A stretch of DNA of 64,000 bases from Prevotella sp. (GCA_031285625.1 JAITVV010000007.1:1-64000); one strand, 5' to 3'; counted from the first letter of the stretch, positions 18,554 to 49,917 are shown. Made by a program: numbers and translations. Notes: generated by a model not told the origin, from the sequence alone.

Positions 18554-18569
18554 TCTTATTTGTTATTAC

Positions 18570-19700: not shown

Positions 19701-19711
19701 CGATATAATTT

Positions 19712-21773: not shown

Positions 21774-21847
21774 GGTCCGGTAGCTCAGCTGGATAGAGCA
21801 ACAGCCTTCTAAGCTGTGGGTCGTGGGTTCGAATCCCGCTCGGATCA
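21774..21847 (+). tRNA. tRNA-Arg (anticodon TCT)
   Basis: Acceptor GGTCCGG/TCGGATC, D-arm AGCTCAGCTGGATAGAGC, loop CTTCTAA, T-arm GGTTCGAATCC; no encoded CCA. Confidence 0.96.
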
Positions 21848-21892
21848 CTTTAAGATCAGAAAATAAGTGACTTATTTCTGACAAAACAAGAC

Positions 21893-21928
21893 AAAACTCT
21901 CTAAGATAGATTCTTAGGGAGTTTTTTT
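21893..21928 (+). terminator. Terminator downstream of tRNA/att
   Basis: AAAACTCTCTAAGA-TAGAT-TCTTAGGGAGTTTT plus T run. Confidence 0.7.
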
Positions 21929-21981
21929 ATTCTCTCCCCAAGACATAATCAGTCATCAAAATGCCGATATTGGACAGTCAT

Positions 21982-22030
21982 TCGTTACGGAATCGTTACG
22001 GATTTCACGAAAGACAAAAACCGTAACGAT
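21982..22030. repeat. Putative integrase arm-type sites, left end
   Basis: TCGTTACGGA at 21982 and 21993, inverted CCGTAACGAT at 22021. Confidence 0.7.
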
Positions 22031-22129
22031 TTAGAATCTAAGTTTCTCATTTGTCGATTATTGGCAGTCGCTTGTCTCCCTGACTTCTAACAAATAAATC
22101 TAGTTTTGAACTCTTAAAAATTACGAGTT

Positions 22130-23368
22130 ATGAATGTTATGAAGTCAACTTTTCGTGTGTTGTTTTATCTGCGAAAAAATGAAGTAAACAAATCCGGTAA
22201 TTCTTCCATTATGGTCAGAATTACAGTAAATGGGGAGCAAGTGCAATTTAGCTCCAAGTTGCAAATCAAACCCGAACTCTGGGATACCAAGAATGGAAAA
22301 GCCGTTGGTAAGAGTGCAGGAGCGATGAATACCAATCGTCTATTGGAAGCCATTAGTGCAAAAGCAAATGAATTGTATCATAAGCACCTGAGCGAGTACG
22401 GCTATGTCCTGCCTGAAAAAATAAAGAATATTATTCTCGGTGTTGACTCTGATAGAAGGAAGATGCTGTTGGAGCATTTTACCGAACACAATGAGTTCTA
22501 TGTATTGAAGATTGGCAAGGACACCTCTCAAATAACTGCGAATCGTTATAAGCTGACCAAACTTCGTCTACAAGAATTTCTAAAAGCAGAATATAATCTA
22601 TCGGATATTCCTGTATTTGAATTGACCCCTGTATTTGTGGAGAAGTTCTTTTTGTTTCTTAGGAATACCCATAATTGCAGCAATAATACCGCCTTGAAGT
22701 TTATCCAACGATTCAGAGCCGTATTCTATTACATTAAAAATACCGGAGCAGATATTAAGATTAATCCTTTCGGGAGTTTCAAGTTTCGTACAACCAAAGT
22801 CGTTCGGGAAATACTTACCCAAGAGGAACTTGACATCATTTACAAGAAAGAGTTTCTGACCGAACGGTTGGGACAAGTTAGGGACATTTTTATTTTTATG
22901 TGCTATACCGGGCTTAGTTACATAGATGTAGCTCAACTGACAGAGGATAATATAAAGACAGCCTTTGACGGACATCAATGGGTAATGACTAAACGCCAAA
23001 AGACAAGTGTACCCTCTAATATCCGCCTACTTGAAATTCCATTAGCAATTATAGAGAAGTATAGAGGACAACAAGCTAATGGTAAATTATTCCCAATTTG
23101 TTCCAATCAAAAGATGAATGAATACTTGAAGGAAATCGGTATAATCTGTGGAATAAATAAGGTAATCACCTGCCATGTTGCACGTCATAGCTTCGGAACG
23201 ACCGTTACGCTCGCCAATGGAGTACCTATTGAAACAGTATCGAAAATGCTCGGACATACGGATATTCGGACTACTCAGATTTATGCCAAAATAGTCGATC
23301 AGAAGCTTAGTACAGATATGGATAGCTTGGCGAAAAACTACACAAGGCGAAAATACACTAATAAATAA
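22130..23368 (+). CDS. Tyrosine recombinase, Bacteroidetes IntDOT-like
   Basis: STFRVLFYLRK arm domain; TGLSYID (Ser for Arg I), HVARHS, LGH, TQIYA. Confidence 0.95.
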   Translation: MNVMKSTFRVLFYLRKNEVNKSGNSSIMVRITVNGEQVQFSSKLQIKPELWDTKNGKAVGKSAGAMNTNRLLEAISAKANELYHKHLSEYGYVLPEKIKNIILGVDSDRRKMLLEHFTEHNEFYVLKIGKDTSQITANRYKLTKLRLQEFLKAEYNLSDIPVFELTPVFVEKFFLFLRNTHNCSNNTALKFIQRFRAVFYYIKNTGADIKINPFGSFKFRTTKVVREILTQEELDIIYKKEFLTERLGQVRDIFIFMCYTGLSYIDVAQLTEDNIKTAFDGHQWVMTKRQKTSVPSNIRLLEIPLAIIEKYRGQQANGKLFPICSNQKMNEYLKEIGIICGINKVITCHVARHSFGTTVTLANGVPIETVSKMLGHTDIRTTQIYAKIVDQKLSTDMDSLAKNYTRRKYTNK

Positions 23369-23373
23369 GCTCT

Positions 23374-23793
23374 ATGGAAGCAGGATACATAAAATTCACA
23401 GACGTAGAAACTGATAAACCCATTATTGAAGTAAAAATCATTGATGGTACAGTTTGGATGACAGTAAATGAGATAGCTGATTTGTTCGGGGTATATACTC
23501 CGACAATCAGCAAGCACCTCAAAGCTATCTTTAAGGATAATTTATTGAGAGAAAATGATGTTACAAAGGAGTATAGATATACTCGAAATGAAAAAGAAGA
23601 ATGTATTCGCACCTATTACAATTTGGAAGCGATTATTTTTCTAAGTTTTCGCATTCAGTCTCTCTATACAAAAGCCTTTAGAGAATGGGTGCTTAATGCT
23701 TTTTGTGAATACAGCAAAGAGAATAAGAACCATGAGGTTATTGTGATATTTAATACGAGTACAAAAAAACACTCACTTAAAACCTTGAATTAG
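23374..23793 (+). CDS. RhuM N-terminal-like DNA-binding protein
   Basis: TVWMTVNEIADLFGV...ISKHLKAIF...YYNLEAII...FREW. Confidence 0.75.
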   Translation: MEAGYIKFTDVETDKPIIEVKIIDGTVWMTVNEIADLFGVYTPTISKHLKAIFKDNLLRENDVTKEYRYTRNEKEECIRTYYNLEAIIFLSFRIQSLYTKAFREWVLNAFCEYSKENKNHEVIVIFNTSTKKHSLKTLN

Positions 23794-23794
23794 T

Positions 23795-24308
23795 ATGGAA
23801 TTACAAGTAATACAGAATAAGATATTTGAAGTTCGGGGATGTCGTATAATGATTGATTTCCACTTGGCTGAATTGTATCAGGTTGAAACCAGAGCATTGA
23901 AACAAGCGGTCAGAAGAAATATCGAGCGATTTCATGTTTGAATTGACTAATGAAGAAGCTATTCAATTGATAAACATAGGGGTATCACAATCTGTGATAC
24001 CCTCCGGCTATAATATTGGAGCATCTAAAATATTCGCATTTTCTGAGCAGGGAGTATCTATGCTTTCATCTGTTTTGCGAAGTAAAACTGCTATAGACAT
24101 CAATATTTCGATTATGAGAGCCTTTGTCGCTCTTCGTCAATATGCTTTTGGATATGCCGAACTTAGTCAGAGATTGGAAACTTTTATGCTCGAAACAAAT
24201 ATGCAATTCAATGAGGTATATCAAGCATTGACAGAGTTAGCTAGCATCAAGGAACTGGAGGATAAACCACGAAAGAGAGTCGGATTTGTACAGGATAAGG
24301 AAGAATAG
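23795..24308 (+). pseudogene. ORF6N-domain DNA-binding protein, frameshifted near 23930
   Basis: ATG 23795 gives MELQVIQNKIFEVRG...LAELYQVETRALKQAVRRNIERF; the rest (FMFELT...AFSEQGVSMLSSVLRS) is in another frame. Confidence 0.85.
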
Positions 24309-24331
24309 TTTCCTAATTTACCTTTTATAAT

Positions 24332-24363
24332 AAGCCTTTTACATTCCAATGTAAGAGGCTTTT
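24332..24363 (+). terminator. Terminator after int-rhuM-ORF6N
   Basis: AAGCCTTTTACATT-CC-AATGTAAGAGGCTT plus T. Confidence 0.65.
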
Positions 24364-24582
24364 CTTATTTTTGTTCTTTAATCAAAAGAGAATAATGAAT
24401 CTAAGAAGTAAATTGCTGCAACGCTTGGAGATGGAAGATATTAACGAAATAACACTTCTGTATTTTTGAAACAAATAAGGGGATAAAAATGCCCCGATAT
24501 TATTTCTATCTTGTGACTCTTGCTAATATGATTAAAATTCATAGTAACTTAGAGTGACATATATCTATAATAAAAGAGTTTG

Positions 24583-27348
24583 ATGAATTGTCAGTTTGTA
24601 ATATACTTAAAAAACAAAGCATCACTAAAGTTTGAGTACAAAAGAGATGTTTCCACGGTTGTGCATACCGGCAATGGATATCGTATCACATTTAACAATG
24701 GAAAATCCTATAACTATGGAGCCGATAATGTGAACTACTATCCGCTTATATCAATGCGAGATAATGTGCGTATATATGAAAACGGCAAATTGAACAATAA
24801 ATACAATACTGTTTATAATTATAATCACTATTTGATTTTTGGAGATGAAGACAATTATTCTTATCCAATTGAAAACAACGCTGATATTGAAATATGTGAT
24901 ATAAAGAAAAATACTGCTCGGACAGAATCGGTTATCAATTACTTTAAAGAAATACTGAAAAATACAGGAGAAATTTTGTTTGATGTTCCTGCCGAAGAAA
25001 CAGAAAACAAGAATGTAAATAAAATAAGTTCCGAAATATTGCTCAAAGCCCTTGATAGCATAGATATATTAGAGTCGAGGTCGGTATTATCTAACTATAT
25101 TGACGGAACTAATCCTGCTGTCAAAAACTCTAAAGAAACCATTATATACCCATTCGGATGCAATGAAAGTCAAAAACTGGCGGTTGAAACGACTCTTAGA
25201 AATAGTATAAATATAGTAGAAGGTCCTCCGGGAACGGGCAAAACTCAAACGATCTTAAATATTATAGCCAATCTTATTGTGCAGAACAAAACTGTTGCAA
25301 TTGTATCAAATAATAACTCTGCAGTTTTCAATGTGCAAGAAAAGTTAGAAAAATATGGCTATGGAATGCTTGTGGCATCGCTCGGGAATAATGATAACAA
25401 AGCATCTTTTTTCGAAAACCTTGGAGAACAAACAATAAATAAAGATTTTAAGATATCGGCACAGAGATTAACTAATGCAAAGAATGAGATTGCTGAGTTG
25501 GATAGTATACTAACAACATGCTTTCAGTATAGAAATAAACTAGCTACCCTAAAAACAGAATTGGCAGATGCCAAAATAGAATTTGAACATATAAAAGCAG
25601 AACAGCCACTCGAACCAAATACAAAATATGTACTCGATAAGAAATTTCACCGTGATTGGAGTCTAGACAAAATTTTAAAATTGATCGGTTCATTATCAAA
25701 CGTTAGCATTAAATCTAAACTGTCTTTCATAAACAAATTACGCTTTGCTTTGCAATATGGCTTATTTGACTTTAAAATCATTAGCCAGTATAGTGAAGAG
25801 TTCCCTATTTATGCAAATCACAAATTCTATGAATTATACATCACAAAAATAGAAACTAAAATATTAGACATTGAAAATTGGTTGGTCTCTAATAATGAAG
25901 AAACCAATCTTAAGCATTTTACCGAAACATCCAAAGAAGTATTCAATGGCACACTATTCGAAAAATATAAACGATTAGGAAAATCTATGTTTTCACTTGA
26001 TGATTATCGTAATCAGTTTGATCGTTTTACAAAACACTATCCGGTTATACTAAGCTCTACTCTTTCGCTGCATACAAGTATTCCTAAAGGGTATCTTTTT
26101 GATTATCTGATTATAGATGAATCTTCACAGGTTGACATTATAAAATCTGCAGTATGTTTTTCGTGTTGCAGAAATGTAGTTATCGTAGGAGATAGTATGC
26201 AACTTAATCATATTGTAGACGAACAGAGCAAAGCTGCATCAGAATTATTTAAAACAAAGTACAACATCTCTCCTGCATATGATTATGTAGAACAGAATAT
26301 ATTAAACTCACTAAAAAGCTTGTATGGTAATAGTATAAAGACCGTTTTATTAAAAGAGCATTACAGATGTCATCCCACTATTATTGGATTCTGTAATAAG
26401 AAGTACTATAACAACAGTTTAGTTATTATGACTAATGGTAACAACCACCCGTTTAAAATCATTGAGACAAATATATCTGGCGGGAGAGACAACTACAACC
26501 AAAGACAGATAGATGAAACAGATTTCTACATTCGTCAAAATCATTCAGCAGACTATACTAAAGTCGGAGTTATTGCACCATATAGAAACCATGCAAATAT
26601 TCTACAAAAGCAACTTCCCGATGGTGCAGAAGCAGATACTATACATAAATTTCAAGGACGCGAAAAGGATGTAATCATATTCAATACCGTAAGAAATACA
26701 GTACAACCATTTATAGACAATCCCAATCTGATAAATGTAGCTGTATCAAGAGCTGTTAAAGAATTTATTGTAGTAAAACCTATATCAATGGAGCTTCCTC
26801 ACGGAACAAACATAGGCGATATGATACGCTATATATGTTATACTACCGACCCTAATGAGATAATTATTAAGGGTAGCATATGTTCTGTTTTTGACCTTTT
26901 ATACAAAGAATACAACAATGTTTTCACTTCATTCATTTCATCTAATAAGAACATAAAAGGTTCTGCCGCAGAAATTATAATTCACAAGCTGTTGAGTGAA
27001 AATATATTATTAAACAATTCCAAATTTTCATCTATTGATATGGCCAGAGAGTACAGGCTTAGAGATCTTATTCGAGATTTTAAGCCATTCTCTGAAAATG
27101 AGATTAAGTTCATAAATAGCAATTCAAGAATTGATTTTCTTTTGTATAACAAGATTGACAAAACTCCTGTACTTGCTATTGAGGTGGATGGTGTATCATT
27201 CCACAACAATGAACTGCAACATGAAAGAGACAAAAAGAAGAATAATATTTTAAAGATAATTGGACTGCCATTGCTTAGGCTATCGACAGATGGATACAAT
27301 GAGGAAACAAGGATTGTTGAAAGTTTAGAGTCTGCAATGAGACTATAG
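24583..27348 (+). CDS. SF1 (DNA2/NAM7-like) helicase fused to C-terminal DUF2726/Vsr-like nuclease domain
   Basis: GPPGTGKT, IIDESSQ, VGDSMQL, EHYRC, TIHKFQGRE, NVAVSRA; C-terminal IDFLL...AIEVDGVSFH...RDKKKN...LLRLST. Confidence 0.88.
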   Translation: MNCQFVIYLKNKASLKFEYKRDVSTVVHTGNGYRITFNNGKSYNYGADNVNYYPLISMRDNVRIYENGKLNNKYNTVYNYNHYLIFGDEDNYSYPIENNADIEICDIKKNTARTESVINYFKEILKNTGEILFDVPAEETENKNVNKISSEILLKALDSIDILESRSVLSNYIDGTNPAVKNSKETIIYPFGCNESQKLAVETTLRNSINIVEGPPGTGKTQTILNIIANLIVQNKTVAIVSNNNSAVFNVQEKLEKYGYGMLVASLGNNDNKASFFENLGEQTINKDFKISAQRLTNAKNEIAELDSILTTCFQYRNKLATLKTELADAKIEFEHIKAEQPLEPNTKYVLDKKFHRDWSLDKILKLIGSLSNVSIKSKLSFINKLRFALQYGLFDFKIISQYSEEFPIYANHKFYELYITKIETKILDIENWLVSNNEETNLKHFTETSKEVFNGTLFEKYKRLGKSMFSLDDYRNQFDRFTKHYPVILSSTLSLHTSIPKGYLFDYLIIDESSQVDIIKSAVCFSCCRNVVIVGDSMQLNHIVDEQSKAASELFKTKYNISPAYDYVEQNILNSLKSLYGNSIKTVLLKEHYRCHPTIIGFCNKKYYNNSLVIMTNGNNHPFKIIETNISGGRDNYNQRQIDETDFYIRQNHSADYTKVGVIAPYRNHANILQKQLPDGAEADTIHKFQGREKDVIIFNTVRNTVQPFIDNPNLINVAVSRAVKEFIVVKPISMELPHGTNIGDMIRYICYTTDPNEIIIKGSICSVFDLLYKEYNNVFTSFISSNKNIKGSAAEIIIHKLLSENILLNNSKFSSIDMAREYRLRDLIRDFKPFSENEIKFINSNSRIDFLLYNKIDKTPVLAIEVDGVSFHNNELQHERDKKKNNILKIIGLPLLRLSTDGYNEETRIVESLESAMRL

Positions 27349-27694
27349 GTTTGGTTGAAATACGTTCTCTCCTTTGTGATATTAATTTTTTAGAATACAA
27401 TTGGTAATTTCTTGAGAAGAGCTCCCTTTGTTTATTTTACAAAGACACTTTCTGATAGAATTTGTCTTTTATGTGATAGTTACGATAAACGTGCTATAAC
27501 TTATCCAAGAGCCACTTTCGCTCCCATTCTACTCACGATCAAGGAAGTCTTGGACTCAAAGCAGCAAGAGTACATCTAATTGTGTACACTTGCAAAGAAC
27601 TGATGTGAATCATTTTATTATCAACTATATTTTTAGATTTCTCCTTCCGTTTCTCTTATTATAACTACTCCACATTAGTATATGTCACCACTAC

Positions 27695-27870
27695 TCGGTC
27701 ATTTTGTTCATCGGGCAAAGGTATGAATAGGTTTTAGGACTGTATATTCCAGCCTAGTGGTTTTCTCTAAAATCTTCCTCTTTCCCTGTGGGCGAGCGTA
27801 TTTAGTAGAAAAAATATGCTTTCCTAAAATCTTATACCCTTTTGTTGCCCTTGAAACAAAAAACGACCGA
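27695..27870. promoter_or_regulatory. About 175-nt imperfect fold-back, Frpo/ssi-like single-strand promoter candidate
   Basis: Nested inverted repeats TCGGTC/GACCGA, GGGCAA/TTGCCC, TTTTAGGA/TCCTAAAA, TTTTCT/AGAAAA. Confidence 0.6.
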
Positions 27871-27885
27871 TCCGATAGATGACGC

Positions 27886-28170
27886 ATGAAAAAAAATGTC
27901 GCAGTTATGAGAAACGAAAAAGAAATATTGAAACAAAACTCCCTCACCTCCGGAATCATCATAAAATTGGGCTTGAGGGTCGCAGTTATTGCTCTTTGTG
28001 GGTACTTATTTTATCTGAATGGAATCTCTGTATTTGGTGTTGTTGGTGTGTATATACTTATCCGCAGTATTCTTAAAATCAGACGATTATCTATCAATGT
28101 TGTTTTTTCTCTTCTCTCTATTTTATTTCTGATAATAATAATCTCTCTTATTCTATTATTCATTTTCTAA
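27886..28170 (+). CDS. Small hydrophobic membrane protein
   Basis: 94-aa ORF with hydrophobic segments, first of three tightly spaced genes. Confidence 0.6.
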   Translation: MKKNVAVMRNEKEILKQNSLTSGIIIKLGLRVAVIALCGYLFYLNGISVFGVVGVYILIRSILKIRRLSINVVFSLLSILFLIIIISLILLFIF

Positions 28171-28181
28171 AACCTAAAATC

Positions 28182-28787
28182 ATGGAAAACAATTATAAGA
28201 ATCTCAATAAATACGAAAAATTAGCCGAAATACAAGATTTACGCCTTATGAAAAAAGAACGTTCATATGCAGCTAAGTATCTAAAAGCTTTATGGCAGAA
28301 CGATACAGCCATAATAACGGAATATGAGAGTTTTGGAAACTCTGCCCGACAACTATTAATGAACAGACGAGAATACGATCAGCATCTGTTATTTGGCTTT
28401 ACGGATATTGCATTCAATGAATACGGATGGTTGGAAAGACCTCAGTTCTTAGATGTCGAGCATTTCGAATTTCCACATCGGGACGGATGGGCGGTAAGTA
28501 ATCATATCACTATTGGTAGAGGTATTAATGGCAAATGGTCCTACGGGGCAAGTTATTCATGCAATACCAGTGGAGGTGGTTATGGTTTAGGCGTATGGGG
28601 CAAAATATTTGATGACAGAAAAAGTTGCTTAATATCTGCCTTACAAGAACTAATGGGTAAATTAAAGAAAGTAGACCAAGATAAATATACCGCTCGTGTA
28701 TTGAAGCAAGCAAAAGAGTTATTTGACACGGTTACAGGAAGAAAGGTTATACAGTTGGAATTATTTAAAACGGATAGATATGTATAG
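28182..28787 (+). CDS. Hypothetical protein (Bacteroidetes conjugative-element type)
   Basis: 201-aa ORF, A-rich initiation region, overlaps next start. Confidence 0.75.
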   Translation: MENNYKNLNKYEKLAEIQDLRLMKKERSYAAKYLKALWQNDTAIITEYESFGNSARQLLMNRREYDQHLLFGFTDIAFNEYGWLERPQFLDVEHFEFPHRDGWAVSNHITIGRGINGKWSYGASYSCNTSGGGYGLGVWGKIFDDRKSCLISALQELMGKLKKVDQDKYTARVLKQAKELFDTVTGRKVIQLELFKTDRYV

Positions 28788-28956
28788 GTTATATTTAGGA
28801 TTCAAACTATTAGGCAAATTTGATAGTATATTGGAAGCTAAACAGTTTGCAGAAAAAAGTGGATTGAGTGGGGCATTCAATCTGATTGGGGATAAGTATC
28901 GGGATGGTTGGTATGTGATGATATTTAGAGAACGTAATACTTCGAATCCTTTTTAG
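28780..28956 (+). CDS. Small hypothetical protein (58 aa)
   Basis: ATG 28780 overlaps upstream gene end; MYRLYLGFKLLGKFDSILEAKQFA. Confidence 0.65.
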   Translation: MYRLYLGFKLLGKFDSILEAKQFAEKSGLSGAFNLIGDKYRDGWYVMIFRERNTSNPF

Positions 28957-29876
28957 CGGGCCTGATATGGAGAAAAGAGGAAAAACCCATAGGGTGAACC
29001 TATATTCATATATCTCAATTTCGTAGCGATAATACAATTTTGTTTTATAATTATGAAATTAGTTTTTAAAATTTCTCAAATAACAAGCACCGTGTTTAAC
29101 TATTAATTTTCTTAATTTAGAATTAGGGCTTTCTGCTATACTAATCGGGAGCAATCATATCGGGATCACCTAGTTCTATTTGCTGCATTGATAGAAAAAT
29201 ACATATTTTTTAACAACTTACGACCGATAAAAATTAAATCACATTTTTCGGATTCTAAGAGTTCTTCCATTTGTTAAGTTTCTGTTAAAAGACCAACAAC
29301 TCCTGTTATTAAATCACTTTCTTGTTTGAAATGGATTATTTACGGTAGTGGCTAGGTGGGTATGCCATAGTATTCTTTAAAAATGTGAGAAAAATATGAG
29401 AAGTTTTCAAAGCCAATAGAAAAACATATTTCATTAGCAGGAAGAGATGTGATTCCAAGCATTTATTTTGCTTTATTCAAATCTGTATCTCTCTGATCCA
29501 CATAGCTAATTTTTCGTTGAAAATAAACAAAAAATCATGGTTAAGACCAGATTATTGAAATATGGTTTAGGGGAAGGGAATGAGCAAATGAGATGAGGCA
29601 GTTACTCATTGGATTAACAGTAGTCTTTATTTTTTCATCGGAACGAAGAACAGTAATTTCCGCTTTGGTCAAAAACTCTTTTAAGATATCGTCTTTTAGA
29701 CAAAACATCAAGCTGTCATATATAGTCATTTTCAGAGTTTCCTTTTTCCTCATATTTGATCAGCTGTTGGAAAAACTCCGATCTACTTAAACAACCAGGA
29801 GCGGATATGTTGATTATAAAACTCAAGACTTTGAAACGATTCCTCAAAGATTATATTTAGTCATTAATAGTCAAGC

Positions 29877-29996
29877 CTAGGAGATTTCTATCATACATTT
29901 CTTGAAATATGGGAACGTAAAGGAAGTCGCACTTTGTTTTTAGATAGATTGATTAAACTTCTTGAGGAAACAATGGACGGGTTGGACAATAAATAA
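29877..29996 (+). pseudogene. rteC: C-terminal remnant of an RteC-family regulator
   Basis: Translates LGDFYHTFLEIWERKGSRTLFLDRLIKLLEETMDGLDNK*, resembling the RteC C-terminus; no intact 5' part. Confidence 0.7.
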
Positions 29997-30123
29997 TAGG
30001 AGAATAAACTTTTACTAAAATATACTTGTGAAGAGATTTAGATTAGATAAATAATACCTATATTTGAACCTAGAAGTTAGGCAGATAGAGGTCTGCCAAC
30101 ACAAGACAAAAAGGCATCATTTT

Positions 30124-30146
30124 AATCGTTACGAATTCGTTACGGA
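30124..30146. repeat. Putative integrase arm-type sites, right end of unit 1
   Basis: TCGTTACG at 30126 and 30137, same motif as at 21982/21993. Confidence 0.7.
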
Positions 30147-30231
30147 CTAGCCTTTTGAAAAAGATAAACGATTGATTATTACATCTATTACGAGATAAAA
30201 AAGTGTTCCCGCTCGGATCACTGTAAAACAT

Positions 30232-30266
30232 AAAACTCTGTAAATTAATTATTTACAGAGTTTTTT
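30232..30266 (+). terminator. Terminator after second att site
   Basis: AAAACTCTGTAAAT-TAATT-ATTTACAGAGTTTT. Confidence 0.75.
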
Positions 30267-30471
30267 ATTGATCCTGCAGAATCAGAACCTGAAATTACAT
30301 ATCGAATAGCACTCTTATTATCAGCAATATACTGAAATATCATTTTTACCTTTTAAAACAATAAAAGAAAAAACAATACTAAATCGTTACTGTTACTGTT
30401 TGTCTGTCCTATTTTTTGTTTTCAACAGCCAAGTGAAAACTTCAAACAATCTTATTTAATCTATACTTCTA

Positions 30472-30541
30472 TTCTAATGGTTTTCTAATAATATTCTAAC
30501 AGTTTTCTAACAGCTTGCCATCTATCATAGGCCTACTTTTG
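30472..30541 (+). promoter_or_regulatory. mgtA promoter: 4 x TTCTAA (11-bp period) plus -7 box
   Basis: TTCTAA at 30472, 30483, 30494, 30505; TACTTTTG at 30534. Confidence 0.8.
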
Positions 30542-30576
30542 TGGCAAAAATAATAAACCATTAAAAGTATAAGATT

Positions 30577-33231: not shown

Positions 33232-33245
33232 GAAGATGAATAACA

Positions 33246-33947
33246 ATGATCTCATTCACTATTAACATAGGATTGGCCCTTCTGCTGGGTATGTGCATAG
33301 GGCTCGAACGCCAGTTGCGCCAACGGGTGGCGGGGTTACGCACCAATACGCTGGTATCTCTGGGAGCAGCCATATTTATGGTCATTGCCTGCAAAATAGG
33401 TGGGGATGCACAGGGACGCATCGCATCTTATATCATAAGTGGCATGGGCTTTCTGGGAGCAGGCGTCATTATTAAAGATGGAGCAACAATAAGAGGGCTT
33501 AATACAGCCGCAACCCTTTGGTGTACGGCTGCTATCGGGGCATTCTGTGGACTCGGTTATATCTACGAACCTTTGATAGGAACAGCTTTTATTATTACAG
33601 TGCATCTCATTTTACGCCCCTTATCGAATAGGATAATGAAGTCTACAGCTTTTGTCGATAAGGAAACCGAAGAATATCGCTATAAGTTCGTCACCTGCTG
33701 TAAAGAAAATGTAGAAAACCACATACGAGTATTATTTATCCAGTATATCGGAAACACCAACGACCTGATGCTGAGTTCCCTTACGAGCTACAATGCAGAT
33801 ACTCCTACATCGGCTGTGATAGAGGCAGATATTATCAGCTTCTCTAAACAAGATGCCGCAATAGAAAAGATTGCTTCTTTCCTCACTCTGGAAAGTGGTG
33901 TAACTTCTATTAAGTGGGAAGTAAGCAGCATGGATGCACATTCATGA
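33246..33947 (+). CDS. mgtC: MgtC/SapB family protein
   Basis: IGLERQ, AGLRTNTLV, GMGFLGAGVI, GLNTAATLWC. Confidence 0.93.
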   Translation: MISFTINIGLALLLGMCIGLERQLRQRVAGLRTNTLVSLGAAIFMVIACKIGGDAQGRIASYIISGMGFLGAGVIIKDGATIRGLNTAATLWCTAAIGAFCGLGYIYEPLIGTAFIITVHLILRPLSNRIMKSTAFVDKETEEYRYKFVTCCKENVENHIRVLFIQYIGNTNDLMLSSLTSYNADTPTSAVIEADIISFSKQDAAIEKIASFLTLESGVTSIKWEVSSMDAHS

Positions 33948-33953
33948 AATATA

Positions 33954-34025
33954 GGATTAAGAAAGTCGCAGGTGTGAGAAATTATTAACTCCTACTCATC
34001 GCTTCCCGCTTTCTTAATCCTTTTT
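33954..34025 (+). terminator. Hairpin after mgtC
   Basis: GGATTAAGAAAG ... CTTTCTTAATCC followed by TTTTT. Confidence 0.6.
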
Positions 34026-34093
34026 CTAATAGTTTTCTAATAACTTTCTAAGACTTCTCTAACAGGCTGAAAAGAATCAACTCCCTACTTTTG
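34024..34093 (+). promoter_or_regulatory. RND-1 promoter: 4 x (T/C)TCTAA (11-bp period) plus -7 box
   Basis: TTCTAA at 34024, 34035, 34046, CTCTAA at 34057; TACTTTTG at 34086. Confidence 0.8.
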
Positions 34094-34124
34094 CCGCAAA
34101 AAATAATTCTAAAAACAGAAAAAT

Positions 34125-35234
34125 ATGAAGAACAGGAAACCATTACAGCTCATATTGCTATTGTCGGTAATATGCCTTGCCGCTTGTAAAAGCAAAGATG
34201 TAGAAAATGAAGCGAATGCTTATCAGATAAAGGGAGATACAGTGTATGTAGATAATAACAACATTCTTATTTCGAAAATAAAACTATCAGAGGTAGAAGT
34301 TGAACCCTATTCAAAAGAAGTAATAACGGCAGGAACCGTTCAACCCATCCCTACACAATTTGCTTACGTAGCACCGCCTTTCTCGGGAAGAATTATAAAG
34401 TCATATATTAAATTAGGGCAACGGATTGCGAAAGATACTCCTTTATTTGAAATAAATTCCCCCGATTTTACTGCTGCTCAGAAAGATTTCTATCAGGCTC
34501 AATCGTCGAGGGAACTCGCTCAAAAGGAACTCAAACGTAAAGAGGATTTAATAGAAAACGGAGTCAGCTCGCAAAAAGAACTGGAAGAGGCTTTAAGCGC
34601 CTTACAGATTGCGGAGAAAGAATATGAGAATGCTCATGCGGCTTTGCTGGTCTATCAGGTAAACCCCGAAGATATGGTATTGGGACAATCGCTTATAGTG
34701 CGTTCCCCGATTTCGGGCAATGTAATAGAAAATAACATTGTTACGGGTCAATATATCAAAAACGATTCGGAACCGATTGCCACTATTGCCGACCTTTCGC
34801 AGGTATGGGTTACGGCACAGGTAAAAGAAAAAGATATCCGCTTTATACACGAAGGCGACAGCATAGAAATGTTTATGTCGGCTTATCCCGAAGAAATCAT
34901 CAACGGGAAAGTTTTCCATGTCGAAGAAGCGGTAGACGAAGCTACCCGCTCGATAAAAGTGCTGTCTGTCTGTGATAACAAAGAAGAACTCCTCAAGATA
35001 GGCATGTATACTACCGTGCACTTTCTGGACAAATCGTCCGACTTTGTCCATGTCCCCGAAAAAGCATTGCTGCAAGGAGAGAAAGACAGCTACGTATACG
35101 TGGAATCGGCGCCTAATACATATATCCGCACTCCTGTAGAAGTCGAAAGTTCAAAAAATGGGAAAGCCGTAATCGCAAAAGGACTCAGGGCTGATTGTAA
35201 AATCATTAGTGAAGGAGGGTACTATTTAAAGTAA
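34125..35234 (+). CDS. RND periplasmic adaptor (CzcB/CusB-like) lipoprotein
   Basis: Lipobox LAAC; VRSPISG, IADLSQVWV, VPEKALL. Confidence 0.9.
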   Translation: MKNRKPLQLILLLSVICLAACKSKDVENEANAYQIKGDTVYVDNNNILISKIKLSEVEVEPYSKEVITAGTVQPIPTQFAYVAPPFSGRIIKSYIKLGQRIAKDTPLFEINSPDFTAAQKDFYQAQSSRELAQKELKRKEDLIENGVSSQKELEEALSALQIAEKEYENAHAALLVYQVNPEDMVLGQSLIVRSPISGNVIENNIVTGQYIKNDSEPIATIADLSQVWVTAQVKEKDIRFIHEGDSIEMFMSAYPEEIINGKVFHVEEAVDEATRSIKVLSVCDNKEELLKIGMYTTVHFLDKSSDFVHVPEKALLQGEKDSYVYVESAPNTYIRTPVEVESSKNGKAVIAKGLRADCKIISEGGYYLK

Positions 35235-35332
35235 AAGTCGCAGACCTTTTTATTTACCCGAGAAGTCAAACCACAGGCATGTTGTAATCAGAAAATATGC
35301 CATTTAATTCCAACTTTCATTCAAGTTATATT

Positions 35333-38300
35333 ATGAAAAAAGATTTAATGTTGACGGTTATACAAAAAAGATGGGTGCTGCTGTGCCTATTCATTATACT
35401 CTGTTTCTTCGGTTATTACTCGTGGAAACAACTATCCATCGAAGCTTATCCTGATATTGCGGATGTTACTTCACAGGTGGTTACCCAAGTGCCAGGATTG
35501 GCTGCCGAAGAGGTGGAGCAACAAATAACGATTCCTCTCGAAAGGGCTTTAAACGGGTTGCCGGGTATGCACGTTATGCGAAGCAAAAGCACTTTCGGGC
35601 TATCGATGATAACTATCGTTTTCGAAGATGGTACAGAAGATTATTGGAGTCGCCAGAGAGTACAGGAAAGGCTCGACGAGGTGGAACTACCTTATGATGC
35701 CGTACCAGGACTAGACCCGTTAACCTCTCCTACAGGAGAGATTTACCGCTATATTATCGAAAGTGACAAACACTCGTTAAGGGAACTAACCGATTTGCAG
35801 AACTGGGTAATTATTCCACGTATCAAGCAGGTTTCGGGAGTAACTGATGTCAGCAATTTCGGAGGGATAACTACACAATATCAGGTAGAAATTGACCCAC
35901 AAAAACTTGAACAATATCATATCTCATTAGACCAAGTCATGGAAGCCATCGAGAACAATAATTCCAATGTCGGAGGCAGTGTTCTCAATCGGGGTGACCT
36001 CGGATATGTGGTAAGGGGAATCGGGCTTATTTCCGATTTGGAAGACTTAGGCAAAATTGTTGTCAGTTCCGAAAACGGAGTACCTGTTTTTCTTAATGAT
36101 ATAGGTAAACTAAAATACGGAAATCTCGAACGTAAAGGTGTTTTCGGATATACCGACCGCAAACGTGAGTATTCGGAAAGTATAGAGGGTATTGTCCTTT
36201 TATTGAAGCATGAAAATCCTTCTATTGTGTTGGAGGGTATCAAAAATGCAGTGGATGAACTGAACAGCGAAACACTTCCCGAAGGTGTGAATATTCACGT
36301 ATTTCTCGACCGTACCCAGCTGGTCGATACAACACTCCACACTGTATCGCGTACACTGCTCGAAGGTATGATTCTGGTTATTATCGTACTCATTGTTTTT
36401 CTCGGAAGTTGGCGCGGGGCACTGCTCGTAGCCGTTACGATTCCCATATCGTTACTTATTGCATTCATACTGATGCATCTCACGAATATTCCTGCAAACC
36501 TTTTATCACTGGGGGCTATCGATTTCGGTATCATAGTAGATGGTGCCATTGTGATGATGGAAACCATACTAAAGAAGAGGGAAGACCATCCGCAGGAATA
36601 TCTGGAAGAAAAAAGTATTTCGAAACGTGTAATAGAAGTTGCTAAACCGATTGCATTTGCCACTATAATTATCATCACGGCCTATTTGCCTCTTTTCGCA
36701 TTCGAACGTGTCGAACGTAAATTGTTCACTCCGATGGCATTTACGGTAAGTTATGCTTTAATCGGCGCTTTGCTGGTAGCCTTGTTTCTCATTCCGGGAA
36801 TCGGATATGCGCTTTACCGCAAACCGAAAAAGATATATCATAATAAATGGCTCGAAAAACTGACCTTGAAATATTCGGACGCAGTAAGCAAAATACTGAA
36901 AAAACCGAAAAAAGTAATCGTATCCGTCGCTGTCATTTTTGTTTGTGCCATCGGACTGTCTGTCTTTGTTGGAAAAGATTTCCTACCTGTGTTGGACGAA
37001 GGTTCTATCTGGATGCAGGTAAATCTCCCACCGGGAATATCAGTGGAAAAATCGAGGGAGCTATCCGATACACTACGGCAACGGACTATGAAGCATGGTG
37101 AAGTCACCTACATTGCCGTTCAGGCAGGGCGTAACGATGACGGTACAGACCCTTTCACTCCATCACATTTCGAGGTTTCCATCGGTATCAAGCCGTACAG
37201 TGAATGGCCGAGCGGAAAAACCAAGAACGATCTGATAGACGAATTAGCAAAAGAATATGAGTCACTGGCAGGCTTCCGTGTCGGATTCAGTCAGCCGATG
37301 ATCGACGGAGTGATGGATAAGATTGCAGGTGCGCATAGTGAACTGGTAATCAAAGTGTATGGCGACGAATTCAAAGAAACCCGACGGATTGCCGAAGATA
37401 TTATGAATACCCTGAAAAACGTGGAAGGTGCCGTCGATTTGGATATCGACCAGGAACCGCCCCTGCCTCAATTGCAGGTACATATGAACAGGGATGCCAT
37501 TGCGCGTTACGGGTTGAATGTTTCGGATGTGAGTAACCTGATTGAGGTGGCAATAGGAGGCAAAGCCATATCCCAGATTTATCAGAACGACAGAGTATAT
37601 GATATTACCTGCAAGTACGATGAAAATTCGCGCAACACCCCCGAAAAGATTGCTGCGCTGATGCTGACCTCCGCTACAGGAGCTAAGATACCGTTATCAC
37701 AGGTAGCCGATATAAAATTAAGTACAGGTGAAAGTACCATCACACGCGAAATGAACAAACGCCATCTGACCGTAAAGTTAAATCTTCGTGGGCGTGACCT
37801 CGGTTCTTTTCTTGAAGATGCCCAACATTCAATAGAAAAAAAATATAAAATACGACCACGAAAAATATCATATAAAGTGGGGCGGACAGTTTGAAAATCA
37901 ACACCGCGCCTATTCACGCTTAGCTGTTATTGTTCCTTTGGCTCTGGCAATTATGTTTATCTTGCTGTATGCCGCTTTCGGAAAATTCCGTCAGGCAGGA
38001 TTGGTTTTGACCATTGTTCCGTTGGCTTTGTTCGGCGGCATGCTCGCCCTCAATCTAAGAGGAATGACGCTGAACGTATCTTCTGCAGTCGGTTTTATCG
38101 CTTTGTTCGGTGTCGCCATTCAAAACGGCGTGATTATGATTTCGCATATCAATGGTTTACGCAAAGACGGAATGCCATTACTAAAAGCGGTTTCTGATGG
38201 TACACGTCATCGTTTCCGCCCGATACTGATGACTGCGACAGTTGCTATATTGGGATTATTGCCTGCTTCTCTTGCTACGGGTATAGGTTCTGATGTACAG

Positions 38301-38438
38301 CGTCCCCTTGCCACCGTTATCGTATACGGTCTGATGTTTTCGACTATTATTACCCTGTTTGCCTTACCTGTCTTTTATTACATGATAGAAAATAAAGCAG
38401 AAAAATCAAAAAAAGAATCGGAATATGAAAATAAATAA
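35333..38438 (+). pseudogene. CusA/CzcA heavy-metal RND transporter with one extra A in run 37836-37843
   Basis: Two ORFs join if one A is removed (IEKNIKYDHEKYHIKWGGQFENQ); DFGIIVDGAIVMME, RPILMT. Confidence 0.85.
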
Positions 38439-39678
38439 AGTACAATCCATAATAGTAATGAGTATTCTCATCCTGATGAATTTTGCGGCCTTTGCACAGT
38501 CGCAGAATTCTATGGATGGAATGAATCCAATTTTATCTTTCCACGAATATTTAAATCAGGTGGGAAAAAAGAACCTCAATTTTCTGGCTGAAAAATACAA
38601 TGTAGATATTGCCGAAGCCGAAATGATTGCACAAAAAGTGCTTCCCGACCCCGATTTGGAGTTTGAAGCGGCGGACGAAACTTTTACTCTGGGATTAGCT
38701 TATAACCTTGAACTGGGTAATAAACGCGGTGCGAGAGTACGTCTTGCCAAAAGCCAGTCGGAATTAGAAAAGCTGGTTCTCGAATATTATTATCAGGAAT
38801 TGCGTGCCGAGGCTGCCAATTTGTTTCTGGATGCCATACAACAGCGGGAGCTGCTGACTGTGAAGAAAAGCTCTTATGAATATATGCTGCAATTGAGCCA
38901 TTCGGACAGTATCCGTTTTCGTTTGGGAGAAATAACCGAAACCGATGCCCGTCAATCGAAACTGGAAGCAGCCACTTTACTCAATGATGTTTTTGAACAG
39001 GAAGCTGTATATAAATCGACATTGGTGTTACTCAATCAATTTATGGGCAGAACCTCTGATACCCTGAATATTCCTTCTGGAAAGTGGGATACATTGAATA
39101 GGGAATATATACTTCCTGAGCTTACGTCCTTAGGACTAACTACTCGTATAGATTTGTTTGCTGCAAACAAAAACATTGAAGTGGTAACGAACCAACATAA
39201 ACTGGTAAAAGCCGAACGAAAAATGGATTTAGGTTTGTCACTTAATTACGAACGGGATTGGCATGGATTCCTTCCGCCATCCCGTTCATTTACGGCAGGT
39301 ATTTCTATTCCGCTTAAGTTCTCCAACCTGAATAAAGGCGCAGTGAAAGCGGCACAATTCGGGATAGAACAATCGAAAATCCAGCAACAGAATATGGAGT
39401 TGCAAATCAAATCCGAAATATCACAGGCATTTTTTCATTTCGAGGCTGCCAAGAAAAAATTAAGGCAGTACCAGTCAGGACTATTAGACGAATCCCATAA
39501 AATACTGGATGGTATGGTTTATAAATACAAACGCGGCGAAACAAGCATTATGGAAGTCCTGATTGCTCAACGTACCTATAATGAAGTTCAGGAGCAATAT
39601 CTGGAAACCATGAAAGGATATGTTTCGTCTTTAGTCGAACTGCAAAAAACATGTGGTATATGGGACATTGAGTTCTAA
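38425..39678 (+). CDS. TolC/CzcC outer membrane efflux protein
   Basis: Signal peptide, coiled-coil OEP repeats, YKRGETSIMEVL. Confidence 0.88.
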   Translation: MKINKVQSIIVMSILILMNFAAFAQSQNSMDGMNPILSFHEYLNQVGKKNLNFLAEKYNVDIAEAEMIAQKVLPDPDLEFEAADETFTLGLAYNLELGNKRGARVRLAKSQSELEKLVLEYYYQELRAEAANLFLDAIQQRELLTVKKSSYEYMLQLSHSDSIRFRLGEITETDARQSKLEAATLLNDVFEQEAVYKSTLVLLNQFMGRTSDTLNIPSGKWDTLNREYILPELTSLGLTTRIDLFAANKNIEVVTNQHKLVKAERKMDLGLSLNYERDWHGFLPPSRSFTAGISIPLKFSNLNKGAVKAAQFGIEQSKIQQQNMELQIKSEISQAFFHFEAAKKKLRQYQSGLLDESHKILDGMVYKYKRGETSIMEVLIAQRTYNEVQEQYLETMKGYVSSLVELQKTCGIWDIEF

Positions 39679-39717
39679 AAAGTTTATCTTTGCTTTATAG
39701 CCTTTATTCTATTTGGT

Positions 39718-40407
39718 ATGAAAAAAATATTGGTCATAGAAGATGAAAAACGGATAGCCGAAATTTTGCAGAAAGGCCTTTATGAATTCGGCTTCGAAGT
39801 TAGTGTCGCTTTCGATGGAGATACAGGTAAAAGACTCATTAATTCGAATTCTTACGACCTCATCATTACGGACATCATTCTTCCTCATCACAATGGCTTT
39901 GAACTGACAAAGGTAATTAAGGATAAGAACCCTCATACGCCTGTAATCATGCTGACGGCACTCGGTGCGACAGACGATAAGCTGGACGGATTCGATGCTG
40001 GAGCCGACGATTATATGGTAAAACCGTTTGACTTACGGGAATTGAATGCACGGATAAATGTGCTGTTGAAAAGACATCCAAACCAGAACGAAAATGTTGT
40101 AATGAATGAACTGAAGTATGATAGTTTAACTATGCAACTGGACACCAGAAAGGTCTTTCGTTCAGGAAAAGAAATAAAACTAACCCCCAAAGAATTTAAC
40201 CTGCTGAAATACCTGCTCGAAAATCCCGAAAGGGTTTTGCCCCGTTCCGAAATAGCCGAAAAAGTATGGGACACGCATTTCGATACGGGTACTAATTTTA
40301 TAGATGTGTATATCAATTACCTGAGAGGAAAAATTGATAAGGCTTTCGATAAGAAACTCATTCATACTAGTCCCGGCATCGGATTTATTCTAAAATCGGA
40401 AGAATGA
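39718..40407 (+). CDS. OmpR-family response regulator (CusR/CzcR-like)
   Basis: VIEDE, DIILP, GADDYMVKPF, IDVYINYLRGKID; TATCTTTG at 39685. Confidence 0.93.
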   Translation: MKKILVIEDEKRIAEILQKGLYEFGFEVSVAFDGDTGKRLINSNSYDLIITDIILPHHNGFELTKVIKDKNPHTPVIMLTALGATDDKLDGFDAGADDYMVKPFDLRELNARINVLLKRHPNQNENVVMNELKYDSLTMQLDTRKVFRSGKEIKLTPKEFNLLKYLLENPERVLPRSEIAEKVWDTHFDTGTNFIDVYINYLRGKIDKAFDKKLIHTSPGIGFILKSEE

Positions 40408-41774
40408 AGATAAAGACCAAAATAGCGCTTCGATACTCGATTGTCACCGCCATATTAATGGCGGTTTTCGCTACTATTGTCTATTTTGTTTCAGCTCACG
40501 ACAGGGAAATCGAATTTTATGATGACCTCTACAAAGAAGGCGTATCGAAAGCTAATTTATATTTCGAAGCGAAAGCCAGTCCCGAAACCATGCATTCCAT
40601 CTATAAGAACAACATAGAATATATCGACGAAGTGGAAGTCGCCATTTACAATACGCAGTTCAGCCTTTTGTATCATGACGCAAAAGATATAGATATTGTA
40701 AAGGAAACGCCTGACCTTATCACAAGAGTTATCAATTCAAAAAAGAACATTGATTTTTATGTGGAGAAATATCAGGCAGTCGGTTTTATCTTTCATCACA
40801 ATAATTCTCAGTATATAGTTACGGCAGCAGCTTTTGACGGTTACGGTTATAATAAATTGCACAGGCTTTTTGTCAATTTACTTATCCTTACCCTCCTTTC
40901 TATAATTACTTCTTTTATTGTCGGTTACTATCTGGCAAAGAGAGCCCTGAAACCTGTATCGGAAATCTCAAACAAGATGAAAGAGATAACCGCCAATAAT
41001 CTGGATTTAAGATTACTCAGCTACAATGAGAAAGACGAATTCGGAGAATTGGCGACTTCCTTCAACAAAGCTCTGGATATTATAGAATCTTCTTTCGAAT
41101 CGCAGAAAATGTTTGTCAGTAATGTGTCGCATGAATTGCGGACTCCGCTGGCTACCTTAATCGGTGAAATTGATTATGCTTTGTTGAAAAAGCGTACCAT
41201 TGAAGAATATATCCATACACTCCAAACATCGAAGCAAGATACTGTACGCCTGATAAAATTGGTGAACGGTTTACTCGATTTGGCCAAAGCAAGTTATGAT
41301 GAAAGCAAAATATCGATGGGAGAAGTACGTATAGACGAGATACTCCTCGATGCGAGGGAAGAGGTTTTAAGGTTGAATCCTGATTACAAAATCGATTTAC
41401 AATTTACACATCCTACAGAAAACGATTCCGAATTAATTGTTTCAGGTAATGAATACCTTTTGAAAACCGCTTTCTCTAACCTAATGGAGAATAATTGCAA
41501 ATTTTCTGCCAATAGAACATCGACCGTGAAAATATATTCAGTGGAAAACTCATTGCATATAAGCTTCTCCGATACGGGTATTGGTATCCCGTCTGAAGAT
41601 TTGGAGAATATCTTTAAACCATTCTACAGGGGAAGAAACAAAGAATTCATTGATGGCAACGGTATAGGTCTGGCTCTGGTCGATAAAGTTATCAAGATTC
41701 ATAAAGGAAAGATAGGAATAGATTCAGTTATTGGCGTCGGCACGGTTTTTAATATTGAATTCTTTGTCCTTTGA
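40404..41774 (+). CDS. HAMP sensor histidine kinase
   Basis: SHELRTP, NLMENNCKF, DTGIGI, GIGLAL; ATGA overlap with regulator. Confidence 0.93.
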   Translation: MKIKTKIALRYSIVTAILMAVFATIVYFVSAHDREIEFYDDLYKEGVSKANLYFEAKASPETMHSIYKNNIEYIDEVEVAIYNTQFSLLYHDAKDIDIVKETPDLITRVINSKKNIDFYVEKYQAVGFIFHHNNSQYIVTAAAFDGYGYNKLHRLFVNLLILTLLSIITSFIVGYYLAKRALKPVSEISNKMKEITANNLDLRLLSYNEKDEFGELATSFNKALDIIESSFESQKMFVSNVSHELRTPLATLIGEIDYALLKKRTIEEYIHTLQTSKQDTVRLIKLVNGLLDLAKASYDESKISMGEVRIDEILLDAREEVLRLNPDYKIDLQFTHPTENDSELIVSGNEYLLKTAFSNLMENNCKFSANRTSTVKIYSVENSLHISFSDTGIGIPSEDLENIFKPFYRGRNKEFIDGNGIGLALVDKVIKIHKGKIGIDSVIGVGTVFNIEFFVL

Positions 41775-41860
41775 ATATAAAGTAGTAAATTATATTCCAA
41801 AGAATACAAGTCAACTCTAAGCCAAAAGTGGCATTTTGAGAGACAATCCAAAGACAGAAA

Positions 41861-42200
41861 CTGTTACTAAATCGTTACTATTTGGATTGCATATATTAAG
41901 TAAATGACTGACAATTATCAATTTAAAATATAAATTGGTTGATCCATATGGGATCACTAGGCGAACCGAACCTTCGGGGACAGTTCAAAGCCAAAAGCAC
42001 AGGAAAGTCTTCTAAAGTATTAGTTTAGAAGACCTTTTTATTTAATAAATTCTCCTGAGAGACTTCACCAAGACATAAAAAGCCTTCAAAAAATCGAAAA
42101 TAACTACTAAATCACTACTGCTTTAGTTTCGAGTAAAAACAGTAGTTGTCTTTGGATAAAAACTCTCATTTACTGCTCGTTTTGACAGTCAAGAGAAAGA
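41861..42200. repeat. Degenerate att junction (arm-like sites, core, hairpin)
   Basis: CTGTTAC/TCGTTAC 41861/41872, core 41940-41958, hairpin 42004-42037, CCAAGACATAA 42068 identical to 21938. Confidence 0.65.
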
Positions 42201-42286: not shown

Positions 42287-42323
42287 GGAAATATATTTGC
42301 ATCATAAAAATTGTATGCGTGCA

Positions 42324-43613: not shown

Positions 43614-43616
43614 GCC

Positions 43617-44714: not shown

Positions 44715-44717
44715 TCC

Positions 44718-47816: not shown

Positions 47817-47854
47817 TCCAAAATTCTTATCTTTATAATTCGAATATTCTTATT

Positions 47855-48538: not shown

Positions 48539-48546
48539 TTTCTATA

Positions 48547-49893: not shown

Positions 49894-49917
49894 TTGTCTT
49901 GTATTATAAAAGATATT

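Follow-up and report, generated by a model that had tools for sequence, protein, structure and literature searches.

We analysed a 64,000-nucleotide (nt) stretch of DNA from Prevotella sp. (GCA_031285625.1, JAITVV010000007.1:1-64000; hereafter the window), in which a tRNA-Arg(tct) gene is followed by three junctions resembling integrase attachment (att) sites. Unit 1, between the tRNA and junction 2, carries a tyrosine integrase gene; unit 2, between junctions 2 and 3, carries a metal-homeostasis cluster; and the DNA to the right of junction 3 leads into another efflux operon, here called unit 3. The features are collected in Table 1. Motif counts were compared with expectation and/or with shuffles of the window. 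At the gathering threshold, Rfam recognised no RNA gene in the whole window besides tRNA-Arg, and when 21700-42300 was compared with plasmids by megablast, the tRNA was the sole match.

Table 1. Features of the tRNA-Arg locus, in window coordinates
Feature	Position	Strand	Remarks
tRNA-Arg(tct), intact, integration target	21774-21848	+	ARAGORN; Rfam RF00005, 65.4 bits
Junction 1 core (attL of unit 1): 16-bp TCCCGCTCGGATCACT, tRNA 3' end	21834-21849	+	Exact direct repeat of 30207-30222
Terminator-like hairpin behind tRNA, supplied by unit 1	21893-21925	+	Colinear with hairpins in left ends of L025, L040, L080 and L081
AAGACATAA box, left-end module of unit 1	21935-21961	+	81% match to 42065-42091; AAAGACAT box in same place in L025 and L040
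Unit 1 left arm-type sites	21982-22032	+	TCGTTACGGA twice in tandem (21982-22002), one inverted copy (22021-22032); layout as upstream of the 49.5%-identical L025 integrase
Tyrosine integrase, 412 amino acids (aa), apparently intact	22130-23368	+	Arm-DNA-bind_5, SAM_5 and catalytic domains; Pfam, six-sequence alignment
Unit 1 cargo region	23374-29790	.	RhuM-N/helix-turn-helix (HTH)-like protein, ORF6N fragment, superfamily 1 (SF1) helicase, small open reading frames (ORFs) without family
RhuM-N/HTH-like protein	23374-23793		Unit 1 cargo
ORF6N fragment	23934-24308		Unit 1 cargo
SF1 helicase with C-terminal DUF2726	24580-27348		Unit 1 cargo; MkoA/MkoC-like, 1e-42
Unit 1 right arm-type sites, TCGTTACGAAT-TCGTTACGGA	30126-30146	+	Motif searches
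Junction 2 core (attR of unit 1/attL of unit 2): AGTGTTCC-CGCTC-GGATCACT	30202-30222	+	Imperfect inverted repeat; motif searches
Terminator-like hairpin, unit 2 left end	30232-30264	+	Aligns with junction 1 hairpin
Arm-type repeats, unit 2 left end, TACTAAATCGTTACTGTTACTG	30377-30398	+	GTTACT variant; matching motifs upstream of cluster in D. gadei
Unit 2 interior: mgtA, mgtC, CzcB-like adaptor, CzcA-like resistance-nodulation-division (RND) pump, outer-membrane factor, heavy-metal-type response regulator, histidine kinase	30577-41774	+	Family scans
Arm-type repeats, unit 2 right end, CTGTTACTAAATCGTTACT	41861-41879	+	Motif searches
Junction 3 core, TGATCC-ATATG-GGATCACT	41940-41958	+	Half-sites kept; 5-bp centre unlike the CGCTC of junctions 1 and 2
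Putative left-end scar of third element	41959-42190	+	About 230 bp surviving; no integrase after
Third-element scar: hairpin	42007-42033	+	
Third-element scar: AAGACATAA box	42065-42091	+	
Third-element scar: tandem ACTACT-N5-ACTACT	42103-42119	+	
Third-element scar: inverted AGTAGT	42141-42146	+	
Third-element scar: TCTCATTT...GACAGTC	to 42190	+	
Unit 3 genes: outer-membrane factor, adaptor, CzcA-like RND pump, response regulator, kinase	42297-49893	+	Family scans

Unit 1 (21850-30222, 8373 bp) is bounded by a perfect 16-bp repeat. The repeated sequence, TCCCGCTCGGATCACT, comprises the last 16 bases of the tRNA, including two bases past the end called by ARAGORN. Its two copies, at 21834-21849 and 30207-30222, were the sole matches at up to three mismatches in the 64 kb (0.17 expected), and none of 100 shuffles reached two matches. 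The arm-type motif TCGTTACGGA is common to both ends of the unit. Judged by the sequence criteria for a tRNA-targeting integrative element, unit 1 is a bona fide integrated element.

The unit 1 integrase matched the Pfam models Phage_integrase (5.2e-15), Arm-DNA-bind_5 (9.6e-18) and SAM_5 (3.2e-10). Its catalytic signature, R352, H353, H376 and Y385 (including the ARH motif), was invariant in an alignment with five relatives. The Arg-I position (TGLSYID) appears to hold a serine, a trait of IntDOT. The protein is ~50% identical to the closest relatives examined, and a PDB search returned only distant Xer/IntI matches, the best at 4.7e-11 over 58 residues. When six integrases from its own and neighbouring families were searched against the window by tblastn, only 22130-23368 was matched (next best E = 0.83); no integrase fragment was found outside unit 1, and Pfam scans of 27 + 21 window ORFs detected no second integrase. 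Family scans of the unit 1 proteins recognised no transfer, mobilisation, relaxase, oriT or excision factor. An integron or gene cassette system was also considered and rejected, as the integrase scored 54.5 bits with the NCBIfam integron-integrase model against a cut-off of 265, and the units consist of multi-gene operons that have promoters and regulators of their own.

Unit 2 (30223-41958, 11736 bp) ends in a region, 41861-41958, that repeats the right-end architecture of junction 2. The tandem GTTAC-N6-GTTAC occurred three times in the window (21984, 30128 and 41863) against 0.08 expected, and its third copy lies downstream of the last unit 2 gene. The combined arm-plus-core pattern, GTTAC-N6-GTTAC-N{55,85}-GGATCACT, matched twice, at 30128-30222 (95 nt) and 41863-41958 (96 nt), and not once in 100 shuffles. 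TCC-N5-GGATCACT was exact at the three junctions only, and five of the six matches to the arm-site core AATCGTTAC (0.49 expected) were at junctions. The arrangement is non-random. Taken alone, GGATCACT is weak evidence, with four matches against 1.48 expected and 9 of 100 shuffles reaching four. A possible origin of junction 3 as a decayed tRNA 3' fragment was rejected by inspection, there being no T-arm pairing and no ARAGORN or Rfam match.

Left-end modules of one element family, consisting of a terminator, an AAGACA box and arm repeats, lie to the right of junctions 2 and 3. The right side of junction 3 is colinear with that of junction 1 over ~130 nt (42065-42190 versus 21935-22069). Each layer has its own arm variant: GTTACGGA in unit 1, GTTACT to the right of junction 2 and ACTACT to the right of junction 3. 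Because the change from GT to AC is present in all three arm copies at junction 3, this looks like the arm set of a different integrase or specificity rather than random decay. The modules at junctions 2 and 3 break off at the expected start of an integrase gene, and the promoter of an operon comes next; tblastn with the six integrases found no integrase or fragment after either module.

All the features quoted in a preliminary description of this DNA were present where it had placed them, including three att-type junctions in register at one tRNA-Arg, a terminator hairpin after each, and a single integrase gene. The spacings of 78 and 79 bp that it gave between GTTAC and the core are right when counted from TCGTTAC, and become 76 and 77 bp from the G of GTTAC. 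It had also pointed to the recurrence of CCAAGACATAA, which we found to be exact at 21938 and 42068, inside a 27-nt match of 81% identity, but not significant by itself (two matches at up to one mismatch against 1.7 expected). The flank comparison of the three junctions that it proposed was better than most shuffles but modest. In ungapped local scoring, the observed value was reached by 8 of 300 dinucleotide shuffles for junction 1-right/junction 3-right, 4 for junction 1-right/junction 2-right, 8 for junction 2-left/junction 3-left and 17 for junction 2-right/junction 3-right.

The left end of unit 1 has homologues elsewhere in the Bacteroidales. The order of hairpin, AAGACA box, tandem arm sites, inverted arm site and integrase gene recurs at loci L025, L040, L080 and L081, and the arm variants among the left ends of this family are GTTACA, GTGACC or GTACCCC. 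In L025, a Parabacteroides metagenome-assembled genome, a 49.5%-identical integrase adjoins tRNA-Ser(tga), and its left end reads terminator hairpin, AAAGACAT box, tandem CGTTACA sites, one inverted copy and integrase gene. The right side of junction 1 matched this left end with z = 18, a score reached by none of 300 shuffles. In L080 (Bacteroides finegoldii, NZ_OY725919.1) and L081 (Bacteroides ovatus, NZ_CP081918.1), the module lies at tRNA-Lys; the integrases there share 51-52% identity with the unit 1 enzyme, and the arm variants are GTGACC and GTACCCC. In L080, two elements, each with its own integrase, stand in tandem at this tRNA, and the duplicated tRNA end finishes in GGCGGATCACT.

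Two of these loci showed further features. At the internal junction of L080 (1666-1739, 11540-11735), we observed the GTGTAAACC arm repeats of the first element and a disrupted, ~55-nt partial tRNA copy. In L040 (Bacteroides mediterraneensis, 17672-20689, minus strand), all that remains of the integrase at tRNA-Ser is its N-terminal arm-binding domain, which continues in frame into a 1005-aa ORF beside a SusD gene; the arm sites of the left end are intact. No direct repeat of the tRNA-Ser end, by which the right end could be set, was found in L040.

We interpret the locus as, more likely than not, a tandem accretion array, in which related Bacteroidales elements with an integrase of IntDOT architecture would have integrated repeatedly at the 3' end of tRNA-Arg(TCT). 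Each newcomer would recombine with the tRNA end regenerated by the attL of the previous occupant, so that the newest element would sit beside the tRNA, whereas older ones would be displaced outward and decay. Decay does rise with distance from the tRNA, as this model predicts: whereas unit 1 is complete, unit 2 lacks an integrase between its two ends, and in unit 3 just a left end remains. On this model, unit 2 would have lost its integrase and kept both ends, and the third element would have shrunk to ~230 bp of left end (41959-42190), joined directly to the promoter of the efflux operon that follows. From this arrangement we infer how the events succeeded one another, that the integrases were lost by deletion, and that the unit 2 cargo came from an element.

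A three-step model for cis-mobilizable elements (CIMEs) has the same outline (PMC5704250): integration at the end of a target gene, decay that keeps attL and attR without integration genes, and new integration at the regenerated site, giving a tandem. Unit 2 retains a left hairpin and arm repeats (30232-30398) as well as a right arm tandem and core at the family spacing. It contains no integration or transfer genes and no integrase fragments, and the Pfam and NCBIfam matches of all eight ORFs concern transport or regulation only. With both end modules and no integrase, unit 2 qualifies by sequence criteria as a CIME-like remnant. The suggestion in the preliminary description that metal-homeostasis operons sit where integrases once were is upheld in part, by the family-type ends of unit 2 and by the end of the junction 3 module at the expected integrase start. 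No right-hand junction of unit 3 was found in the window.

We then compared the unit 2 cluster with relatives, using 79 loci fetched via MgtA; the closest MgtA was that of Dysgonomonas termitidis (87% identity), and the DNA belongs to a Bacteroidales bacterium resembling Dysgonomonas. The block mgtA-(mgtC)-adaptor-RND pump-outer-membrane factor-response regulator-histidine kinase is conserved in relatives, and its neighbourhood varies. The D. termitidis block is flanked by tRNA-Pro on one side and proS on the other; its neighbours are tRNA-Asp and a 35%-identical integrase in Dysgonomonas gadei, and two HigBA pairs with an IS1595 transposase and DUF1847 in Massilibacteroides. Other genera have the cluster regulators upstream or the pump divergent. 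Since none of the 79 loci had the tRNA-Arg flank, the 30.2-42 kb block is conserved but not fixed and syntenic in relatives; the arrangement that the preliminary description had named as refuting it was therefore not seen. A tblastn search with MgtA against plasmids gave no close Bacteroidales copy, the best matches (~55-56% identity) being from enterobacteria and Brevibacillus. In D. termitidis (L001, 8290-8600), mgtC is a remnant, next to which four GTAAC sites are densely packed, with AGTTACGAGTTAC present twice within 40 nt.

The cluster flanks of the four relatives with the same gene order (L001, L002, L004 and L015) were tested against the unit 2 arm segments, with 1000 shuffles each. 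In D. gadei both flanks matched; the scores were reached by 4 and 0 shuffles upstream and by 13 and 23 downstream. The spacing from arm motif to promoter is ~66 nt there, compared with 74 nt in unit 2. The right flank in D. gadei runs into a C-terminal integrase fragment (aa 332-401, 53% identity), and behind it is a RhuM-like gene that shares 73% identity with its unit 1 counterpart. No match was found in the flanks of L001, L002 and L015, where at least 139 of 1000 shuffles reached every score. The exact patterns GTTAC-N6-GTTAC and TACTAAATC[GA][TC]TACT were absent from the loci of 10 relatives, and the looser matches in D. gadei emerged by alignment only.

Other features of unit 2 were noted. 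The CzcA-like RND pump is frameshifted into 35297-37894 (865 aa) and 37938-38438 (166 aa), with the break near an A-rich run at ~37840-37940, and its orthologues are single ORFs of 1033 aa in D. termitidis and 1037 aa in D. gadei; the gene has either become a pseudogene or been split by a homopolymer error in the sequencing. Upstream of both mgtA (30472-30550) and the adaptor gene (34024-34102) are phased TTCTAAT/TTCTAAC repeats, 76% identical over 79 nt. Those upstream of mgtA are kept in all eight aligned loci, and a similar TTTCTAATC occurs in the unit 3 promoter near 42227. We regard the repeats as the probable operator for the response regulator encoded in the cluster itself. The GC content of unit 2 (0.37-0.46, against ~0.32-0.40 around it) was set aside as a sign of foreign origin because other RND genes in the window are similarly GC-richer.

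Several observations weigh against accretion. Flank similarity outside the motifs is marginal (4-17 of 300 shuffles), and with some single motifs weak as well, the case is built on architecture and not on resemblance of the sequences as a whole. Junction 3 agrees with the tRNA end at 12 of 16 positions, with the differences clustered in the central 5 bp, and is no copy of it. Its right side shows no similarity to the L025 left end (90 of 300 shuffles). Arm-like motifs occur in just one of the four same-order relatives, and in neither of the two closest, L001 (87%) and L015 (85%); the cluster can therefore exist without att ends, and one relative supports a block travelling with them while three have the block without them. 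None of the 79 loci had the left flank of the window (TGT, CNNM, glyoxalase) or unit 3 genes above 45% identity, response-regulator paralogues aside, and no empty site was seen among them. A right-hand junction of unit 3 was not found in the window with TCC-N5-GGATCACT at up to two mismatches, so that the unit 3 operon may be native DNA next to a deletion scar. Finally, accretion requires two independent, clean losses of an integrase gene that spared the arm sites.

Much of this would be accommodated if unit 1 were the sole element and the only part able to move. The right side of junction 2 and both sides of junction 3 would then be scars of long-dead elements, and the metal operons would be ordinary chromosomal genes that came between the scars by deletions, homologous replacement or gene capture. 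The three same-order relatives without att-like flanks fit such a history, as do the unit 3 end missing from the window and the lack of integrase fragments in it. The three similar RND/two-component operons stand side by side, as in an ordinary chromosomal metal-resistance region, and L040 shows that deletion can fuse a left end straight to native genes. However, unit 2 has left- and right-type ends whose orientation and order with respect to the tRNA are correct, so that by integration logic its content once lay within an element. A further point against such a history is the D. gadei copy, which has matching motifs on both flanks at another chromosomal site and at a similar spacing. On balance, we consider this history unlikely, though it deserves to be kept in mind.

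The centre of junction 3 bears on a second alternative. In the 7-bp overlap used by IntDOT, 2 bp are identical and the other 5 bp form a coupling sequence in which differences are allowed; only 1-2 bp at the first cleavage site must match (PMC2817482), which bears out the earlier statement that IntDOT tolerates 5 mismatched bp. At junction 3, two flanking bases are kept and the 5 central bp differ, matching this logic of GC plus a 5-bp coupling sequence. The pattern CC + ATATG versus CC + CGCTC is compatible with heterology-tolerant recombination. The odd centre fits two accounts, namely IntDOT-like exchange tolerant of overlap heterology, or a crossover confined to GGATCAC(T). In the former, CGCTC would remain at the tRNA-side junction and the ATATG of the element would end up at the far one.

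Such tolerance would allow an active cassette system of the kind suggested in the preliminary description, in which the unit 1 integrase excises and re-inserts integrase-less units, singly or in blocks, regardless of the differing 5-bp centre. The arm-site core AATCGTTAC is common to units 1 and 2, and half-sites are kept at all three cores. The order in D. gadei, cluster and then integrase-RhuM, is the permutation expected if a composite circle had re-integrated through an internal junction. IntDOT's tolerance of 5-bp heterology (PMC2817482) and the cis-mobilisation of tandems of a CIME and an integrative and conjugative element (ICE; PMC5704250) are both documented. Against this, the arm variants differ in their 3' parts beside the shared core, and neither an excision factor nor a transfer function was recognised in unit 1. 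The integrase is also only ~50% identical to the nearest relatives examined. We find an active system of this kind doubtful. The wider proposition, that Bacteroidales have modular, cassette-like exchange at tRNA genes, with integrase-less operons bounded by family arm/core sites moved between tRNA loci and species by a resident integrase in IntDOT-like exchange that ignores the central 5 bp, appears improbable to us.

That junction 3 and the GTTACT/ACTACT repeats are unrelated to att sites, being chance occurrences in AT-rich intergenic DNA or transcription-factor sites (e.g. of the OmpR type, direct repeats of 11-bp period being typical of OmpR-family operators), would agree with the insignificance of GGATCACT and CCAAGACATAA taken alone and with the marginal flank alignments, but is very unlikely given the counts for the combined pattern and for AATCGTTAC, the position of the repeats at 41861-41879 downstream of the kinase gene and not in a promoter, and the different, TTCTAAT-type boxes of the likely regulator.

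Accretion, the interpretation that we favour, also places the locus among known systems. The original papers on Streptococcus CIMEs are said to be those of Pavlovic (2004) and Bellanger (2011). The ICESt1/ICESt3-CIME arrangement of Streptococcus thermophilus resembles the present locus in having a decayed unit with attL and attR in tandem with a later element (PMC5704250). Our locus differs in phylum, in integrase family and in its target, a tRNA gene and not fda. It also has three layers, each with its own arm variant, and an internal right-hand core that differs in the central 5 bp.

With IntDOT/CTnDOT, unit 1 shares the N-terminal arm-binding, SAM-like and catalytic domains of the integrase and a core of imperfect inverted repeats around a short centre. 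CTnDOT uses GTANNTTTGC-type sites and is not known to target tRNA genes, whereas the 16-bp identity at junctions 1 and 2 is as in tRNA-targeting elements; the comparison is one of architecture, from which heterology tolerance would follow by analogy. NBU1, which targets tRNA-Leu with a 14-bp core, and NBU2 are likewise small integrative elements with a tyrosine integrase beside attL, at a tRNA 3' end with a short identical core. Unit 1 differs from them in its target tRNA and in that no relaxase, oriT or mobilisation genes were recognised in it; NBU1 is named as an integrative and mobilizable element in PMC5704250. The B. ovatus ICE (L081) and the B. finegoldii tandem (L080) resemble our locus in their 51-52%-identical integrases, the same left-end layout and a tRNA end finishing in CGGATCAC. 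Unlike our locus, L081 carries Tra genes and L080 two integrases; both have other arm motifs (GTACCCC, GTGACC), and the stretches fetched included no integrase-less unit. In a few, non-exhaustive keyword searches of the literature, the general accretion concept was present, and no account of this integrase family or of Dysgonomonas arrays was found.

The cargo of unit 1 and the DNA beyond unit 2 were also inspected. Unit 1 looks like a small defence island: the helicase, with its DUF2726 nuclease-like C-terminus, matches Mokosh MkoA/MkoC models, and the RhuM-N-like and ORF6N proteins (23374-24308) match the PADLOC candidate family PDC-S05. After unit 2 come two more CzcCBA-type RND operons (42297-57508), each with its own two-component system, one per strand and 25 bp apart (49893/49918), and three paralogous metal-efflux modules lie within 27 kb. 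A search for a fourth junction beyond 42190 with TCC-N5-GGATCACT at up to two mismatches and with CTACT-N6-CTACT gave nothing convincing, and no arm or core motifs were seen by eye in the AT-rich stretch at 57.5-59.3 kb. Within this stretch, 57900-58750 is very AT-rich (GC 0.27) and without long ORFs, between the efflux region and a fimbrial (Mfa2-like/DUF5031) cluster.

An accretion array with integrase-less units is a well-known route of genomic-island growth and involves no new mechanism. The term 'cassette-like' in the preliminary description was loose, as the pattern is the known accretion/CIME one and not integron-like. As interpreted here, the locus would be a readable example of a metal-homeostasis region built from successive elements at one tRNA and fixed by integrase loss. 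It offers three natural arm variants (GTTACGGA, GTTACT and ACTACT) and two core centres (CGCTC and ATATG) that appear to belong to one integrase family. These variants may serve as a ready set of substrates for arm specificity and overlap heterology in tRNA-targeting Bacteroidales integrases.

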